Of a stretch of 10,058 bases of DNA, positions 556 to 9,485 are shown piece after piece. The stretch is from the NCBI GenBank assembly GCA_048939015.1, contig JBHLPW010000106.1, forward strand, positions 1 through 10,058, read 5' to 3'. This DNA comes from Promethearchaeota archaeon (lineage in GTDB: Archaea > Asgardarchaeota > Lokiarchaeia > Sigyniarchaeales > SOKP01). The first letter of the stretch is position 1, and every line of letters begins with the position of its first letter. A program made the translations under genes and the position numbers. The notes below the pieces were generated by a model. That model did no database searches, was not told the DNA's origin, and saw nothing but the letters and a program-made list of their open reading frames with translations.

Positions 556-1812
556 TTATATCCGTATTAATCTAAAAAAGTAGAATAAGTAAAACACTAT
601 AAGAAATAAAGAAAAAAACTCTATAGCTAACTTTAGAGATCTCATCATTAAGTAATTATACGGGATAAGTTCTTCATGAAATAAATCCAATTTCTTAAAA
701 AGATCACTTATCTTTATAGTTCCCAATCCTTGAGAATTTGGGTCAAGATTCAAATCAAATCTTGATTTCTTAATTAATTCCAAAACAGCATCATATGAAA
801 TTTGAGGATCTAACTCTTTAATTAGTGCGATAATCCCTGCTCCAATTGAGGCAGCAACACTAGTACCAGTGACTTTAACTTGTACATTATTAGATAATGG
901 GACAGTAATATCTGAACCTGGTAAACAAACATCAGGTTTTATTCTATTATCTAGTGTTGGACCCCTACCACTAAAATTGGGAATTAAAAAATCTTTCGTG
1001 AGAGCACCAACTGTAATTACTCTTTCTGCTGCTCCAGGACTTCCTATTGTTTGTGAATCTGGACCAGAATTACCAGCAGGGCATACTATTATCGAGCCCT
1101 CTTTAGAATAGAGATTACATGCTTTAGATAAGACGTCCTTACCATCAGATGGCTCTTGCGATGAGAGGGATATTAAAAGAATATCCATTTCAATTTGATC
1201 TTCATTAATTTTATCAAATATATGTAAAACATCAGAGAAGTAATATTCACCTGTGGATGAGGTAAGTTTTAAATCAATAATATTTGCTTTTGGAGCAATT
1301 CCAATAAGGTTATCTTCGTCATTTCTGAAATGATTTTTTATAATACTTGCCATTATGGTTCCGTGTGTGATCATGTTCTCTGATACATTATTTACAGTTC
1401 TTTTTTTATATCTATCTGAAGAATCCTTCACACTAGAAATAGATGGAAATTTTGTATTAATTCCATCATCAATAATTCCGATATTGACTTTATTACCCTC
1501 GTAGGTAATATGGGAATTTTTATATTCATCTAAATCTAAAATCTCTAAAACATCCAACATTGAGAGATATAGTTTTTGATCTTCTTCAATTTGTTTTATA
1601 ATTTTCTTGTTTTCATATTGAACTATCGTTTCCTTCTCTAAATTTACATTAATAGAAGGAATTAAATCAAACTTGCTTAAAATTTTTAAATCTCTATAAT
1701 TTTTTATGAATTCGTCTCGTTTTGAGAGTGTTTCAAATGAAATTATTACCCGAAATTCATGATCATTTTGTAGGGGTTCAATTTTTTCTTTAAAGGGGGT
1801 ATAAATCGTCAT
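556..1812 (-). CDS. S8 (subtilisin-like, AprX-like) serine protease with N-terminal propeptide-like region and C-terminal transmembrane helix
   Basis: Catalytic triad motifs IGIIDDG (D115), THGT (H150) and GTSVA (S318); oxyanion PAGNSG (N248); GIAPKA, ITVGA and FSGRGPTLDNRIKPD blocks. Residues about 20-83 look like an I9-type propeptide ending IEEDQKLYL. Hydrophobic tail AIEFFSLFLIVFYLFYFF (aa 396-413). No N-terminal signal peptide. Confidence 0.9.
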   Translation of the reverse strand: MTIYTPFKEKIEPLQNDHEFRVIISFETLSKRDEFIKNYRDLKILSKFDLIPSINVNLEKETIVQYENKKIIKQIEEDQKLYLSMLDVLEILDLDEYKNSHITYEGNKVNIGIIDDGINTKFPSISSVKDSSDRYKKRTVNNVSENMITHGTIMASIIKNHFRNDEDNLIGIAPKANIIDLKLTSSTGEYYFSDVLHIFDKINEDQIEMDILLISLSSQEPSDGKDVLSKACNLYSKEGSIIVCPAGNSGPDSQTIGSPGAAERVITVGALTKDFLIPNFSGRGPTLDNRIKPDVCLPGSDITVPLSNNVQVKVTGTSVAASIGAGIIALIKELDPQISYDAVLELIKKSRFDLNLDPNSQGLGTIKISDLFKKLDLFHEELIPYNYLMMRSLKLAIEFFSLFLIVFYLFYFFRLIRI

Positions 1813-3501: not shown

Positions 3502-5913
3502 TTATTGTGTTAATTTGCTATTAATTTCTTTAATATTATTCTCTATAAAATCAATATATTGCTTTTGTTCCAGTTGATTAAATATTTTTAAAGCTTCTTC
3601 ATAATTTTGTAATGCTTTATGATATTCTCCTTGTTGATTGTAAACTTTAGCAATATTTGCATAATCCATACCCATACTCATTGGGTCATTTAATTGTTGA
3701 TCAATTTGTAAAGTTTCTTCATATCTTCTTAAGGCTTCATGAAAGTTCTCATTTTTTTCATAAATCCTTCCAATATTACTAAGACTAGCCGCTTTGTTAG
3801 ATAATTCTCCCAATCTATCAAATATCAAAACTGCTTCTTCATAATGTTTGAGTGCATTTGAAAATTTCTCTTGAGATAAGTCAATAGTAGCAATTTTAGT
3901 CAGAAGTAGTGCTTTTTTTGATAGATCTCCGATATCTCCAGCTATTTTTAACGCTTCTGAGTAATTTTCTTTTGCAAGAAGATAATTACCAATATTATTA
4001 TATATCATTCCAATATTGTTGAGATAAATTATCTTCATTAAAGGATCTCCCAACCTTTCTTCTATATCTAAAGCTTCCTTATATTTTTCCAAAGCTATTT
4101 CAGGTTCTCCTTGAGTTAAAAAAAATGAACCAATATTGTTAATACATCCTGCCTTTTTAGAAAGATCTCCTAATTTTTCTGCTATTTGTAATGAATCATT
4201 ATATTTTTCTAAAGCTTTCTCATATTCATTGTTATCATCATATACTCTTCCAATATTATTCAATAGGATTATTTTTCCATATTGGTCCCCCAATAGATCT
4301 GAAATACGCAATGCTTCCTTATAGTCTTTAAGGGATTCAACAAGCTCATTACGTGCTTTATGAATCATACCTACATTATTGAGTAAAGCAGCTTTACGAT
4401 TTAAGTCACCAACCTGTTCAGTAATTTTAATAGCTTCAACATAATTTTCTATAGCTAACTCAAATTCATTGCGAATCTCATATACTCTACCAATGTTATT
4501 CTTACAAGTTATTTTGCCAGATAGATCTCCCAATCGCTCTACAATTTCAAGCGCTTTATTATAATTATCAAGAGCTTCATCATATTTACCTATTGTGAGA
4601 TAAACCGAACCAATATTATTTAAATCTGTACTAATGGCAGATATATCCTCTAAATCTTTATCAATTCGATATGATTCCTCATAATACTGTAATGCAAGAT
4701 CAAATTTTCCAGTCATTTGAGATATCAAACCTAAATAATTGAGAAAGTAAGATCTTGATTCGATATCATTAGTTTGCTGAGCAATTGAAATTCCTTTTTC
4801 TGTGCACCTTATAGTAGCTTCAACATCCTTTAAATAGTCAAATAATTGGCATGCGAATTTGTATTTTTCTATAATTGGTATTTCTCCATAAATCTTCTTA
4901 ATCCATTCTGAAAAAGTTGATGTATCAATTTTTGTCCCAGTTAAATCAATTTCATTTATCGGAAGATAGGGTAAAAAAATTCTCCATAAAACATTCTTAA
5001 TAAATTTAGCCGTATTAGTTCTAATTAAGACACCATCGATATCGCAAATCTTACAAACTTCTGATACAAATTGTTCAATATAGGATGACTTTTCTTTATA
5101 CTTTAATATTTCATTCCTATTTATTTCAATTATCTTTGTTATGGAATCTTGACAATGTTCGATCCATATAATACGATTGAGAAAGGGCATTTCTTTTAGG
5201 GCAGGGCCAATATCAAAATCATCACTCCCAGAATATCCCATAACCACTAAAGTTCTGTTATTCATTAGATTGAATACAGCAGACTTTTTATAAGGCTCAA
5301 TAGCAAAAGTTTCACCTTCACCACGATCTTTTCCTAAAGCGCTTATAGTGGTTATTAGTGAATCTTTGGTATTCTTGCCTGTAATAATATTACGCTTAGA
5401 TCCATGAATCTTATAAACTGGGTACTGGTTTGATGCTATTAAGCTTTTCGGATCTTGATATATAATAAAATCTTCCTTGGTAATAACTGGAATAATATTT
5501 TGATGCCATTGCTTATCTAGAACTTGTAGTAATGCATGTTCAATCAAGTAGTCAAAATTAGTAGTTACAACATAATTGCCTCGAGTAATCGCATTGGCTA
5601 AAAATAAATGAATTAAATTTGGCTTATCAATATGCTCTAGATAATTTAAAAACTTTAATTCTTCATCGAATCTATATTGAAATTTTTCTACGACTAATTC
5701 AAATCGTAACATTTCTAATAAAAAAAGATTTTCTACTTCTTCAAAAGGTGCACACAATTCCAATAAACTCCGAACAATTTGAACAGCAGAGGGCATGTTT
5801 GTAGGAGCATCCATTGAAATACCAGCACCAACGAGAAAAGTATAGTTGCTTTTTGGTGAAAATAGTAATTCTAAATCTTTTGTATCTTCCCTAAAGTTTA
5901 TCTCATCTGCCAA
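3502..5913 (-). CDS. SIR2-like (SIR2_2 / ThsA-DSR type) NADase domain fused to a TPR array
   Basis: N-terminal FLVGAGIS (26-33), VVTTNFD (N119), KIHGS (H170) and LVVMGYSGSD (222-231) are the motifs of non-deacylase SIR2 domains. The C-terminal half has helical repeats at an exact 40-aa period. No Walker A motif seen. TTG start. Confidence 0.88.
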   Translation of the reverse strand: MADEINFREDTKDLELLFSPKSNYTFLVGAGISMDAPTNMPSAVQIVRSLLELCAPFEEVENLFLLEMLRFELVVEKFQYRFDEELKFLNYLEHIDKPNLIHLFLANAITRGNYVVTTNFDYLIEHALLQVLDKQWHQNIIPVITKEDFIIYQDPKSLIASNQYPVYKIHGSKRNIITGKNTKDSLITTISALGKDRGEGETFAIEPYKKSAVFNLMNNRTLVVMGYSGSDDFDIGPALKEMPFLNRIIWIEHCQDSITKIIEINRNEILKYKEKSSYIEQFVSEVCKICDIDGVLIRTNTAKFIKNVLWRIFLPYLPINEIDLTGTKIDTSTFSEWIKKIYGEIPIIEKYKFACQLFDYLKDVEATIRCTEKGISIAQQTNDIESRSYFLNYLGLISQMTGKFDLALQYYEESYRIDKDLEDISAISTDLNNIGSVYLTIGKYDEALDNYNKALEIVERLGDLSGKITCKNNIGRVYEIRNEFELAIENYVEAIKITEQVGDLNRKAALLNNVGMIHKARNELVESLKDYKEALRISDLLGDQYGKIILLNNIGRVYDDNNEYEKALEKYNDSLQIAEKLGDLSKKAGCINNIGSFFLTQGEPEIALEKYKEALDIEERLGDPLMKIIYLNNIGMIYNNIGNYLLAKENYSEALKIAGDIGDLSKKALLLTKIATIDLSQEKFSNALKHYEEAVLIFDRLGELSNKAASLSNIGRIYEKNENFHEALRRYEETLQIDQQLNDPMSMGMDYANIAKVYNQQGEYHKALQNYEEALKIFNQLEQKQYIDFIENNIKEINSKLTQ
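3574..4773 (-). repeat. Ten 40-aa TPR-type protein repeats (aa 381-780 of the SIR2-TPR protein)
   Basis: LNYLG/LNNIG/KNNIG/LNNVG/LNNIG/INNIG/LNNIG/LTKIA/LSNIG/YANIA start at aa 391, 431, 471 ... 751. Each is followed by A-x3-Y-x2-AL-x-I and LGD-like linkers. A degenerate unit precedes the array (341-380) and a capping helix follows it. Confidence 0.9.
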
Positions 5914-6047: not shown

Positions 6048-6545
6048 ATGCTAATGATAAAACATGTACTTTTTTACTGTGCAGGAAATACATGTCGAAG
6101 TCCTTTTGCTGAAGCATATGCTAAGTGGTTGAAAAGAACTACATTTAAAGAGGAATTAGCAGAAGTAGAATTTGATTCTGCTGGAATCTATCATTACTAT
6201 AAAACTGCTCAACCTGGAACAGTTAACTATTTAAATTCAAAAGGAATCGATATTGGTAATTTTAAAACAAAAAAAATTGATTCACAATTATTAGAGAATC
6301 AGGATTTGATTTTAGGATTCGAACAAAAACATCATATAAACAAACTGAAAAGAAAATTTAAAAATATCAAAGGATTAGATAGTAAAGTCTTTTTATTATT
6401 AGAATACGCTGGAGAAAAAGGTAATTTAGAGATTAAGGATCCTTTTTATTTACCCCAAGAGGAATATAACAGGATTCTAGAAAGAATTGAGAACGGAGTA
6501 TCAAAAATTATTGAAAAAATTATTGAAAAAAATGAATTGGAATAA
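6048..6545 (+). CDS. Low-molecular-weight protein phosphatase family protein, paralog 1 (YwlE-like P-loop)
   Basis: P-loop C11-AGNTC-R17-S, DSAG, DLIL and general-acid IKDPFY (D131). It has only two Cys residues, so it lacks the distal redox Cys pair of thioredoxin-coupled ArsC. An alternative ATG lies at 6054. Confidence 0.9.
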   Translation: MLMIKHVLFYCAGNTCRSPFAEAYAKWLKRTTFKEELAEVEFDSAGIYHYYKTAQPGTVNYLNSKGIDIGNFKTKKIDSQLLENQDLILGFEQKHHINKLKRKFKNIKGLDSKVFLLLEYAGEKGNLEIKDPFYLPQEEYNRILERIENGVSKIIEKIIEKNELE

Positions 6546-6594: not shown

Positions 6595-8247
6595 TTATTG
6601 TTTTAAAAATTCACTATACTTTTGACTAAAATATTTAATTATAAGGAATCTTGCTTGGTCGAAGCGTTGAATATTACCTTGGAAATTTTTTAGCTCCTTT
6701 GTAAATTTTTGTTCAAACTCTCTCGAAAATTCGTCAATTTTTTTAAATAAAACCGGTAAATCCATTGAAGCAATTAATGTTACAATGTGATATTTTCCAT
6801 AGGTAAATATTAGAGTAGCTTCATCCTTTTGAATTTGTCTTAGTTGTCTTTTAGTGTGAGTAATTTCACTTATTATTGTAATTACTCCTGATAGTGCTCC
6901 TGAGATAAGATCTTCATCAAAATCTGCATCTTCTTCATTTTTTTTTACTAAATCCTTACCTTCGAAACTATAATTAAAAAGACAAACTCCACTTTTATTG
7001 AAAACAAATATATTTTTTAATGAATTTGCCCATTTTTTTTCTTTTGAAACTAAAAATTCTTTCATTGCCATCATCCAAGCAAAAAGCATTACTAAAATGA
7101 ACGCATTTAAATAATCTGGGAAATCTGGTATAAAATTATTTAGCACAGGAAATTTTAAATACAAATCAGTTATAAAAAGGTTGAAAATGTATCCAAAAAT
7201 TGCTCCAAATAACATTAGTGATATAAAAAGTCCATTGATTCGGCCTCTATATTTTAAATTTCCTCTTTCGGTTGAAAAATCTCCTGATATTGTAAAGATG
7301 GCAAGTAGAAGAGGTAAAATAGAAAAACCATAATGAATTGAGAGTAGAATTGTTTTTGGCATACCAAATATAAAGAGTTTATTTTTAAATGCTCCAGATG
7401 AAATAAGAAAAAAGGAGAGAACTACTATACCAAGTACTATTGATGTTTTTCGTCCAATATTATCTAAAAAGCATCCCGCAGCGATAAGATATATAAACGA
7501 TGCCAATGCGAATACAAAAAAATTCACGTCAAAACCGTATCCTGCCAATAGATTCCCTAAAATAAAACTTAATACGGTAAAACTAGAAGAGTACCTAAAA
7601 AAGTGTTTTTCGAAAATGATTTTCAAATATTTCTTATCAGATTCCAAACGTTCACGTGTTTCTATATATTTATAGTTTCGGGAATACCAAAAAACAATAA
7701 AAAATAGACCTAATTCAAGAATCCCAAAAAGTACATACAAAAAGTTAAAAATAATAAAAATTACTGATAAAAATCCTAAAGAAAAACCACCAATCATTAA
7801 AAAAGTCGTTATTCTACCTCGATTCAAAATATTTGTTTCGTGAACTAGAATAGTAAACCATATGATAATTAATTGAGGAATGGTTAAGAGTATAAGTAAT
7901 AATCCAAGATAATAAATAGTTAAATCCGGAATTACAGTTATGAACACTCCAATAACACATATTAAAAGTACAATGTTAAAGTATTTTGTTCTATTTTTTA
8001 TCTTATCAACAATTACACCAGAAATGATAAAACTTACAGCAAGTATTGATAAAAAGATATAAATTTCTGTGCCTACAATTTCACCAAAAATTAGACCAGA
8101 TTCAACAGTATAACGATAAAGAAAGGCACCTGCTACGAACATAATAGCAACTAAAGTAAAAAATAGATATGCTAATGTGGGACGTGGTAAATTGATATCC
8201 CTTGTGAATACTTTTATAAACCAATTTTTTATAGTATGTCTTTTCAT
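6595..8247 (-). CDS. Multi-pass membrane protein with MFS-like fold (about 12 TM) fused to a C-terminal longin-like domain
   Basis: About 12 hydrophobic segments in aa 25-396, in two halves separated by a polar linker (189-218). MFS motif-A-like G77-VIV-D81-KIKNR and G258-CFL-D262-NI-GRK; paired RGR motifs at 143-145 and 334-336. The soluble tail (aa about 410-545) has the longin-type order: two beta strands (IFVFNKSGVCLFNY), a helix (DEDLISGALSGVITIISEI), three strands, then helices (VLFKKIDEFSREFEQKF; NFQGNIQRF). Confidence 0.75.
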   Translation of the reverse strand: MKRHTIKNWFIKVFTRDINLPRPTLAYLFFTLVAIMFVAGAFLYRYTVESGLIFGEIVGTEIYIFLSILAVSFIISGVIVDKIKNRTKYFNIVLLICVIGVFITVIPDLTIYYLGLLLILLTIPQLIIIWFTILVHETNILNRGRITTFLMIGGFSLGFLSVIFIIFNFLYVLFGILELGLFFIVFWYSRNYKYIETRERLESDKKYLKIIFEKHFFRYSSSFTVLSFILGNLLAGYGFDVNFFVFALASFIYLIAAGCFLDNIGRKTSIVLGIVVLSFFLISSGAFKNKLFIFGMPKTILLSIHYGFSILPLLLAIFTISGDFSTERGNLKYRGRINGLFISLMLFGAIFGYIFNLFITDLYLKFPVLNNFIPDFPDYLNAFILVMLFAWMMAMKEFLVSKEKKWANSLKNIFVFNKSGVCLFNYSFEGKDLVKKNEEDADFDEDLISGALSGVITIISEITHTKRQLRQIQKDEATLIFTYGKYHIVTLIASMDLPVLFKKIDEFSREFEQKFTKELKNFQGNIQRFDQARFLIIKYFSQKYSEFLKQ

Positions 8248-8367: not shown

Positions 8368-8847
8368 ATGAAGAAAATAAAGCGAGTTCTCTTTATTTGT
8401 ATGGGAAATACTGCAAGATCTCCAGCAGCAGAATATCTAGCTCGAAATTATTCAGAAAAACTTCATGCCGAATTAACTTTCGATTCATGCGGTTTTTTTA
8501 ATGCCTTTTCCTTTATCCAACCAGAATCCAGTAGATACTTAGATTCCAAGGGAATTAAATATTATGATTTTACACCCAAAATCGTTAATCGGAAGTTATT
8601 AGAAAAACAAGATTTAATCCTTACCATGGAAAGAAATCATTCTAGAGAAATTATACGTAACTTCAGTGATATCCCAAATATTGAAGAAAAAACATTCACT
8701 TTAAAGGAATTCAATGGTGAGAAAAATAATGCAGATATAATTGATCCTTATTATACTACCAATGACATATATAGACAAGTTCTTAAAATTATTGATGAGA
8801 ATGTTGAAAAGGCAATAAAAAAAATAATCCAAAATAATAAACATTAA
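8368..8847 (+). CDS. Low-molecular-weight protein phosphatase family protein, paralog 2
   Basis: P-loop C11-MGNTA-R17-S, FDSCG, DLILTME and general-acid IIDPYY (D126). Shares blocks with paralog 1: YLxSKGI, LLExQDLIL and GEKxN. Confidence 0.9.
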   Translation: MKKIKRVLFICMGNTARSPAAEYLARNYSEKLHAELTFDSCGFFNAFSFIQPESSRYLDSKGIKYYDFTPKIVNRKLLEKQDLILTMERNHSREIIRNFSDIPNIEEKTFTLKEFNGEKNNADIIDPYYTTNDIYRQVLKIIDENVEKAIKKIIQNNKH

Positions 8848-8939: not shown

Positions 8940-9485
8940 ATGGATCAAGTAGTGATAAATAATTCTGTACTTGAAATTTTTTTAGGAGATCTAACCAATC
9001 TGGAACAATATGAAGCGATCGTTATACCTACTAATAGTCGGCTTTTACCCAGTGGCGAACTAAGATGTAAAGTCCTAAGAAAGGCAGGATCACAGGTACA
9101 AATAGAATGTAATAAGATAATTAATAAAATTTCAAAAGTGGCAGTAGGATCTTCTGTCATTACTTCAGGAGGCAAAATTTCAAAATATCTAATACATACA
9201 AATGGTCCTAGACCTGGACAAGGAAATGAAATTAAGAAGTTAATATTAGCTACATGGAATTCATTAAGTTTAGCAGATAAAAAAGGAGTTATAGCTGTTG
9301 CTTTCCCACCAATTTCTCTAGAAATGAGAGGAATAACTTCAAAATTATGTGCTGAAGCAATGATTCCCGCTATGAAAAAATACCTTTTAGAAAAGAATGA
9401 AAACTTAAAAAATATTTCAATATGCTTAGAAAAAAATAGTGATTTCGAGGAATTTGAAAAAGTCCTCAATAACATCACAAGTTAA
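8940..9485 (+). CDS. Standalone macrodomain protein with non-canonical ADP-ribose-binding loops
   Basis: Macro fold motifs appear in order: IFLGDLT, EAIVIPTN, RKAG, G-x2-VITSGG, KYLIHTNGP, NSLSLA, AVAFPPIS. The canonical NAAN, GGGV and TGIYG motifs are replaced by IPTN, PSGEL and LEMRG. Confidence 0.85.
   Translation: MDQVVINNSVLEIFLGDLTNLEQYEAIVIPTNSRLLPSGELRCKVLRKAGSQVQIECNKIINKISKVAVGSSVITSGGKISKYLIHTNGPRPGQGNEIKKLILATWNSLSLADKKGVIAVAFPPISLEMRGITSKLCAEAMIPAMKKYLLEKNENLKNISICLEKNSDFEEFEKVLNNITS

Follow-up and report, generated by a model that had tools for sequence, protein, structure and literature searches.

The DNA analysed here, referred to below as the window, is a stretch of 10,058 nucleotides from a Promethearchaeota archaeon (contig JBHLPW010000106.1 of assembly GCA_048939015.1). 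Inspection of its open reading frames revealed an uninterrupted 550-residue frame on the minus strand, which joins a membrane domain of the MFS fold to a C-terminal longin domain and lies between two LMW phosphatase genes. The host genome that was searched measures 4.86 Mb and is 94.9% complete. The features are listed below.

6595..8247, minus strand: MFS-longin fusion gene, 550 residues, one uninterrupted frame, single copy in the genome
7051..8199, minus strand: 12-TM MFS-fold domain (residues 17-399), compact and divergent, assigned by structure model and superposition
8128..8130, minus strand: position 40 in TM1, Gly here and in the two closest relatives, Glu in 94 of 101 near homologs
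7990..8019, minus strand: first motif A in loop 2-3 (residues 77-86), Gly77 and Asp81 retained, Gly-Arg gone
7813..7842, minus strand: cytoplasmic loop 4-5 signature T-x2-L-x-R-G-R (residues 136-145), 45% pairwise identity in the broad family
7447..7476, minus strand: second motif A in loop 8-9 (residues 258-267), Asp262 and Gly265 invariant in 59 distant clusters
7243..7284, minus strand: cytoplasmic loop 10-11 (residues 322-335), conserved Gly-Asp and Arg-Gly
7021..7122, minus strand: TM12 and the helix into the longin (residues 376-409), one continuous helix, Trp406 in 95% of distant members
6598..7020, minus strand: cytoplasmic longin domain (residues 410-550), TRAPP/Fuzzy/Mon1-like by structure model and profiles
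6859..6915, minus strand: longin helix a1 (residues 445-463), predicted dimer face at 448, 451, 452, 455, 458, 459 and 461-463
6048..6545, plus strand: LMW phosphatase gene, convergent, 49 bp from the fusion stop, a syntenic neighbour and not a dependent partner
8368..8847, plus strand: another LMW phosphatase gene with 42% identity to the one above, divergent from the fusion with 120 bp between them, likewise a syntenic neighbour

A total of 127 proteins from NCBI, JGI, ENA and Logan assemblies match the fusion, about 100 of them over the full length at 45-90% identity, and most carry Promethearchaeota or Lokiarchaeia labels, which points to a Loki-type Asgard archaeon as the source. Comparison with the closest locus gave 87 synonymous and 53 non-synonymous changes in the MFS part and 23 and 9 in the longin part. 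The full-length homologs in independent assemblies, the 49 homolog loci retrieved for neighbourhood analysis (counts are given over 50 loci) and the excess of synonymous changes in both domains exclude an assembly artefact. The MFS-longin fusion is real and widespread across Asgard archaea. The Lokiarchaeia gene block recurs at 66% identity on a contig filed as a Nanopelagicaceae bacterium (L039), which probably reflects faulty binning; several close homologs labelled Thor-, Odin- or Hodarchaeota look mislabelled too. An NCBIfam search returned no matches, and a promoter scan, of a kind unsuited to archaea, stayed at chance level.

A full-length AlphaFold2 model built on 101 homologs (pLDDT 81.5) contains 12 TM helices followed by a soluble domain at residues 410-550. 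The two six-helix bundles superpose on solved MFS structures, and all top Foldseek and VIA matches of the TM part are MFS proteins. The best VIA match is SLC37A4 (Z 30.4, rmsd 3.6, 355 residues aligned). Solved MFS transporters superpose over 340-370 residues with Z of 27-30 and 8-15% identity, and no subfamily stands out among them. The 6+6 MFS layout proposed in the initial annotation is therefore borne out. Pfam MFS_1 (PF07690) scores 17.3 bits on the fusion in one search and 24.8 bits in another, both under the curated cut-off of 33.4, the latter near the bottom among the 78 MFS matches in the genome; weak MFS_1 matches are also seen in many homologs. The nearest ESM Atlas clusters are stand-alone Bathyarchaeia-type MFS when compared by features and weak Promethearchaeota hypotheticals when compared by shape. 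The TM span is 374 residues, against 404 in 61 ordinary MFS proteins of the same genome. TM helices of the fused family have fewer Gly and Pro and more bulky hydrophobics than those of the 61 (Pro 1.2-1.8% against 3.1%), a comparison in which the relatedness of the members overstates significance.

Motif-A-like loops are present in both halves, as had been noted, together with the symmetric RGR motifs at residues 143-145 and 334-336. Loop 2-3 keeps G77-x3-D81 without the Gly-Arg, and D-x2-G-[RK] occurs there in none of the 101 near homologs; Asp81 is invariant among them. In loop 8-9 the full motif is found in all 101 near homologs and in 56 of the 59 distant members. The initial annotation had taken the short loops and the degenerate first motif A as signs of sensing rather than transport. 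The shorter TM span confirms the short loops. The motif A argument is weak, because Asp81 is invariant, the second motif A is intact and working transporters may carry motif A in loop 2-3 and/or loop 8-9 (PMC8154325); with both features retained, the protein is still compatible with transport. Within the membrane, Glu40 of TM1 is a candidate proton site in near homologs. It is absent from 7 of the 101, and on sequence comparison the present copy, with Gly at this position, has stayed under purifying selection despite the loss. No membrane-embedded acid common to the broad family was found among its 59 clusters. A Glu40-Arg236 salt bridge was considered and dropped, as the two residues show no clean co-variation. 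The near homologs retain a TM11 G-x3-G and conserved polar or aromatic positions in cavity-type helices (Tyr27, Glu40, Gln125, Tyr219, Ser227, His305, Tyr306 and Asn338). Fixation of such residues in the close subfamily suggests a putative ligand site.

In MFS topology the motif-A loops face inside. With 12 helices and these loops inside, the C-terminus is cytoplasmic, where the initial annotation had placed the soluble domain. The continuous TM12 helix is a possible mechanical link to the longin; model confidence drops at residues 399-402, giving a low-confidence kink within this helix. The tail was also modelled alone on 150 sequences (pLDDT 85.5, pTM 0.81). It forms a five-strand meander in the order bb-a-bbb-a-a with one helix above and two beneath, which is the topology of a longin. 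The best VIA match is Fuzzy (7q3d_C, Z 12.9, rmsd 3.0, 130 residues aligned), further longin matches are VAMP7 (Z 11.7), TRAPP 3cue_C (11.6), Sec22 and Mon1 (both 11.4), and Foldseek ranked TRAPP Trs23 first. Alignments to longins cover model residues 10-151 and those to roadblocks end near 120; the longin alignments include C-terminal helices that the roadblock matches lack. Pfam longin-clan scores of this protein are under the cut-offs (Sybindin 18.6, cut-off 25; Fuz_longin_1 16.5, cut-off 26.1), and the 150 tails gave Sybindin in 45, Fuz_longin_1 in 21 and Intu_longin_1 in 10, all sub-threshold. The longin-type C-terminal domain that had been proposed is thus recovered at residues 410-550. 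None of the outcomes that the initial annotation had named against itself (a TM part of another fold, a tail that is not a longin, or an artefactual fusion, the last judged here on homologs and codon changes) occurred.

In longin platforms, a1 and b3 form the pairing interface and the GTPase binds to the a1 face (PMC3747258, PMC5216073); SNARE and coat longins do not bind GTPases (PMC3747258). Homodimer prediction with the tail gave a1-a1 and b3-b3 pairing centred on Val455 and Ile472, with contacts agreeing in at least 97% between runs and pLDDT of at least 81. The score of 0.42 coincides with the mark, a level that 20 of 30 solved homodimers attained, as did 1 of 23 single chains; the best of three controls scored 0.02. 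Look-alikes of the tail include a solved Loki longin dimer (8yqg). Because the score only just reaches the mark, and because the predictor may be reproducing solved longin or roadblock dimers, the prediction supports likeness and not binding. Gly450 and Gly454 on a1 are not among the listed dimer contacts, and the predicted pairing would leave these conserved residues on the usual GTPase face. Position 450 is Gly, Ser or Ala in all 112 distant tails and position 454 in 111 of them. Their i,i+4 spacing is that of Mon1 G250/T254 and Ccz1 G106/G110, whose mutation abolishes GEF activity (PMC5216073), and they align to TRAPPC1 Gly40/Ser44 in a register that a weak profile match to TRAPPC1 and Trs23 provides. 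The small a1 residues recur in nearly all longins of this type in the genome, soluble ones included, and are for that reason not specific evidence. The a1 surface thus appears compatible with GTPase docking in a way that is not specific to this protein.

The breadth of the family was determined by searching all 50%-identity representatives. About 59 clusters combine 9-12 predicted TM helices with the same tail, and this radiation extends to Thor-, Heimdall- and Hodarchaeales-type genomes. Both domains were checked in Ca. Harpocratesius repetitus, Ca. Heimdallarchaeum aukensis and endolithica, and a Thorarchaeota MAG; a Heimdall-labelled genome has both as a tandem pair. Members from closed genomes are MCF2138578.1 and MCF2141837.1 (Ca. 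Harpocratesius repetitus) and UJG40449.1 (Ca. Heimdallarchaeum aukensis), and database labels of the family read MFS transporter or hypothetical protein. A profile of the TM domain only was then run against 301 Asgard genomes. Matches above ~90 bits fall in frames of 520-600 residues, apart from contig-edge fragments and a handful of frames of 420-490 residues, indicating that this MFS lineage is almost always fused. The close subfamily is patchy and confined to one Lokiarchaeia family, about half of which lacks the gene; the fusion gene is dispensable.

Across the 59 clusters, a1 and the cytoplasmic loops are better conserved than the TM helices. Identity is 14-22% in the TM helices, 51% in longin helix a1, 45% in loop 4-5 and 57% in loop 8-9; the 61 ordinary MFS proteins at equal TM divergence, a mixed set and a rough control, reach only 18% and 24% in these two loops. 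Invariant or nearly invariant positions are Asp81, the loop 4-5 Arg-Gly-Arg, the second motif A, Gly322-Asp323 and Gly348/Gly352 in the MFS part, and Trp406, Leu447, Gly454 and Glu461 in the linker and longin. The conserved MFS residues make up the cytoplasmic salt-bridge network, which is retained by working transporters and by non-transporting sensors such as Rgt2 alike (PMC8154325), so they show a preserved switch and not its purpose. In a tree, 57 of the 59 fused MFS domains separate from ordinary MFS with support of 0.48. The MFS and 7TM tails interleave in a tail tree with weak support and some mislabelled fragments. As both trees are weakly supported, they show neither a single nor a repeated origin.

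A profile made from the tail identified 42 longin-type domains in the genome. At least 15 membrane proteins end in this longin type, including 7TM proteins, 7TM proteins with HisKA/HATPase and single-pass proteins with large outer domains, and it also stands at the front of longin-GTPase and longin-HTH proteins. For Asgard archaea, fusions of NPRL2-like longins with two-component domains have been described (10.1101/2020.10.19.343400). In agreement with those fusions, the longin behaves, as far as domain arrangements indicate, as an output module on sensor-type inputs. Since the same longin sits on 7TM, kinase and single-pass proteins, the MFS domain would take the place of the sensory input.

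Other proteins with this longin show further arrangements. A 726-residue protein (L050:2575-4755; C31:26574-28754, plus strand) contains some 12 hydrophobic segments, and its longin tail is the closest one in the genome (102 bits). It has no Pfam match and is missed by MFS profiles, making it a second, unclassified polytopic membrane-longin fusion. One chain at L053:1147-3090 (C79) contains 6-7 TM helices, a longin, HisKA and HATPase, with the longin between the membrane sensor and the kinase. A tandem 7TM-longin pair is separated by an 11 bp gap at L051:1343-3597 (C122), and no small GTPase was found on that contig. An 876-residue protein at L058:502-3129 (C125) fuses a longin to an Arf-like GTPase and a nitrilase-fold (CN_hydrolase) domain.

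A phosphatase gene occurs in 43 of the 50 loci, usually directly on both sides of the fusion, and nadB lies beside it in 40. Both phosphatases are antisense to the fusion gene. They are absent at the basal near homologs and at all distant subfamilies read. In 11 same-family genomes without the fusion, both phosphatases persist as a direct tandem; in one of these (L116:1406-1504) a 33-codon N-terminal remnant of the MFS-longin gene lies between them, a direct trace of deletion. The fusion gene is a dispensable passenger between duplicated phosphatases. At another locus (L031:5106-8302) two DUF6125 paralogs, and not phosphatases, flank the fusion, which is again antisense between a duplicated pair. 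Elsewhere in the window, a SIR2_2 protein with about ten TPRs (3502-5913, minus strand) comes and goes beside the block (11 of 50 loci). A subtilase (556-1812, minus strand) that has a hydrophobic segment at its C-terminus but lacks an evident signal peptide is seen in 16 of 50, and a stand-alone macrodomain (8940-9485, plus strand), adjoining nadB, SIR2-TPR and phosphatases, in 26 of 50. No linkage to catabolic genes was found in the loci read.

The initial annotation had proposed coupling of solute binding or transport to small-GTPase signalling. The sensor side of this idea gains support from the longin on 7TM, 7TM-histidine-kinase and single-pass proteins, the conserved output over a variable TM core, the predicted dimer and the small residues retained on the GTPase face. 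The GTPase side does not: the genome has 76 small-GTPase-like ORFs, there is none on this contig, and none lies within 2 kb of any of 15 longin-bearing membrane genes in this genome. A Rab-like gene is divergent from the fusion in 4 of 50 loci (L032, L034, L036 and L045), all of one clade. Two unrelated genes arrived together with it, and of the many GTPases here at 50-58% identity none is clearly its orthologue; the idea of a dedicated GTPase neighbour was rejected. Tandem paralogs of the fusion, 50% identical in the MFS part and about 60% in the longin, occur in 14 of 50 loci. Because either type is commonly found singly and the second copy has been lost in this lineage, an obligate heterodimer was rejected.

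Neighbours of other subfamilies provide leads, not evidence. A roadblock-type gene, recognised by eye from its translation, is co-oriented and directly downstream of a third MFS-longin subfamily (L090:460-840, L091:3264-3644, L092:3095-3472), and the basal close homologs L020, L023, L030 and L038 lie about 3 kb from the same roadblock-type gene, which may mark an ancestral site. In four genera a 360-residue Promethearchaeota protein is encoded 2-28 bp downstream of another MFS-longin subfamily (L099:4040-5116, L100:1536-2630, L101:5071-6171, L103:2578-3678). Its start presumably resembles uDENN/longin strands; profile comparison did not tie it to longins. A small GTPase follows the 360-residue gene convergently at L101; its orthologue in this genome, that of the 360-residue gene (C85:12376-13482), has a similar GTPase at a distance of about 1 kb but no MFS-longin beside it.

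We favour, at roughly even probability, the reading that the fusion is a membrane sensor derived from an MFS protein. It would be a transceptor in the wide sense, might or might not have kept some transport, and would signal through the cytoplasmic longin. On binding of a solute in the central cavity, the two bundles would switch between outward- and inward-facing states. This movement would reach the longin through the TM12 helix and the retained cytoplasmic salt-bridge network, and would alter either longin pairing or how accessible the a1 surface is to a docking partner. The most likely partner would be a small GTPase, of which there are many, or a longin-GTPase fusion, but it could be another longin protein; a homodimer, or a mixed pair with another longin, would be expected because the fusion gene is single in the genome. 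A sensor is favoured by the same longin on sensor-type proteins, by a lineage that is nearly always fused with its output conserved over a variable TM core, and by the lack of a shared membrane acid, the loss of Glu40 under purifying selection and the Gly/Pro-poor TM helices. The predicted canonical longin dimer, with small residues kept on the GTPase face, points the same way. Counting against it, a GTPase is not reliably adjacent, the small a1 residues are non-specific and SNARE and coat longins bind none; near homologs keep what a transporter needs (Asp81, the second motif A, the TM11 G-x3-G and cavity-type polar residues); and the gene is dispensable, missing from about half of the same family. 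The fusion resembles a sensor more than it does a simple transporter, with ligand and partner only proposed. In a more specific form, which we regard as unlikely, a single solute-gated chain would regulate a small GTPase as a GEF, a GAP or a recruiting platform, with the ligand of the MFS cavity controlling a GTPase-docking longin dimer.

It is somewhat unlikely that the protein is instead a working secondary transporter, either a uniporter or H+-coupled via TM1 Glu40 in most near homologs, with the longin tail serving a regulatory, dimerising or localising role, so that information would run from a GTPase or longin partner into the transporter and not outward. The whole 12-TM fold matches transporters at Z 27-30, the gating and polar cavity-type residues are conserved in the subfamily with Glu40 in 94 of 101, variable cavities with fixed cytoplasmic motifs are also normal in transporter families, and soluble C-terminal domains are known on transporters such as YajR (PMC8154325). 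However, the lineage is nearly always fused and far diverged from MFS_1, its tail is better conserved than the TM core, loss of Glu40 is tolerated in 7 of 101, Gly and Pro are low, the same tail sits on non-transporter membrane domains and catabolic genes are not linked in the loci read. A non-sensing anchor or scaffold, in which a frozen MFS fold only holds the longin at the membrane to recruit lipid-free Asgard GTPases, would account for the bulky Gly/Pro-poor helices, the short loops and the same tail on many unrelated TM domains, including the unclassified 12-TM protein in the genome, and has a precedent in UNC93B1, a proposed frozen MFS fold (PMC8154325). We consider it improbable: the subfamily-invariant polar and aromatic cavity-type residues and the retained gating charges are hard to explain by anchoring, for which a single helix would suffice. 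A phosphorylation cassette, with the fusion as target or mediator of the two neighbouring LMW phosphatases, would fit their presence in most loci, but both are antisense, nadB is conserved to about the same extent, and neither basal nor distant members have them. This reading fails because the phosphatases stay in tandem where the fusion gene has been deleted, leaving it highly improbable.

Asgard archaea contain dozens of small GTPases and longins, which need a signal to feed them and a route to the membrane; according to PMC10933270, GTPases cannot be matched to their regulators from gene order. A conserved family in which a solute-binding fold is joined to a longin platform names a concrete input. 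If the protein were a solute-gated GTPase regulator, Asgard archaea would hold diversified nutrient receptors wired to GTPases, a functional analogue in one polypeptide of lysosomal SLC38A9-Ragulator-Rag sensing. Even a regulated transporter would be the first found, in the literature searched, to be controlled through a longin domain.

Consistent with the initial annotation, no characterised protein with this architecture and no description of an MFS-longin fusion were found in the openly accessible article texts searched. SLC38A9-Ragulator-Rag ties a solute carrier to a roadblock/longin GTPase platform. SLC38A9 has an APC/LeuT fold, separate subunits and an N-terminal signalling arm, and its resemblance to the fusion is analogy and not homology. 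CbrA and CrbS (SLC5-STAC-kinase) are transporter-fold receptors with a fused output. Ks-Amt5 (Amt-histidine kinase) and Sd-Amt1 (Amt-diguanylate cyclase) likewise combine a transporter scaffold with a C-terminal cytoplasmic signalling-type domain in one chain (PMC11152129), but with another transporter fold and an enzyme as output, where the fusion has a binding platform. In the MFS transceptors UhpC, Snf3/Rgt2 and NRT1.1 (PMC8154325), as proposed here, the MFS fold reports ligand binding to the cytoplasm, and Snf3/Rgt2 likewise do so with a cytoplasmic tail at the C-terminus. Output from these transceptors runs through a separate kinase (UhpB) or an unstructured tail, and none has a longin; signalling is demonstrated for them, whereas for the MFS-longin protein it is proposed from sequence and models. 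YajR (PDB 3WDO) likewise has a 12-TM MFS part, matching at Z 28.7, and a folded cytoplasmic C-terminal domain. Its alignment to the fusion stops at residue 396. The extra domain of YajR is small and is not known to be a longin.

The longin fold itself resembles those of TRAPP Bet5/TRAPPC1-Trs23/TRAPPC4 (3CUE, 2J3T), Mon1-Ccz1 (5LDD; PMC5216073) and Fuzzy-Inturned (7Q3D) at Z 10-13. The predicted a1-a1 and b3-b3 pairing would be like that of TRAPP, Mon1-Ccz1 and MglB, and the i,i+4 small residues are shared with the first two. Unlike in TRAPP, Mon1-Ccz1 and Fuzzy-Inturned, the longin here is C-terminal on a 12-TM MFS domain and encoded by a single gene with a homodimer likely, and no catalytic extras were identified in the fusion protein. 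Within the Asgard lineage, the NPRL2-like fusions (10.1101/2020.10.19.343400) and the longin-GTPase and longin-TRAPPC3 fusions (PMC10933270) display the same shuffling of longins onto signalling proteins; an MFS partner is not mentioned in either main text, nor was an MFS-longin fusion found in the text of an Asgard transporter survey (PMC7997004). Each ingredient is thus known, from MFS transceptors, from transporter-fold receptors that carry a fused output and from the longin fusions of Asgard archaea, and their combination was not found in the literature searched. What the present analysis adds to these systems is that one longin type ends 7TM, 7TM-kinase and single-pass proteins alike, that a1 and the cytoplasmic loops outlast the TM helices, that the family has no universal coupling acid, and that its tail is predicted to self-pair in the canonical way.
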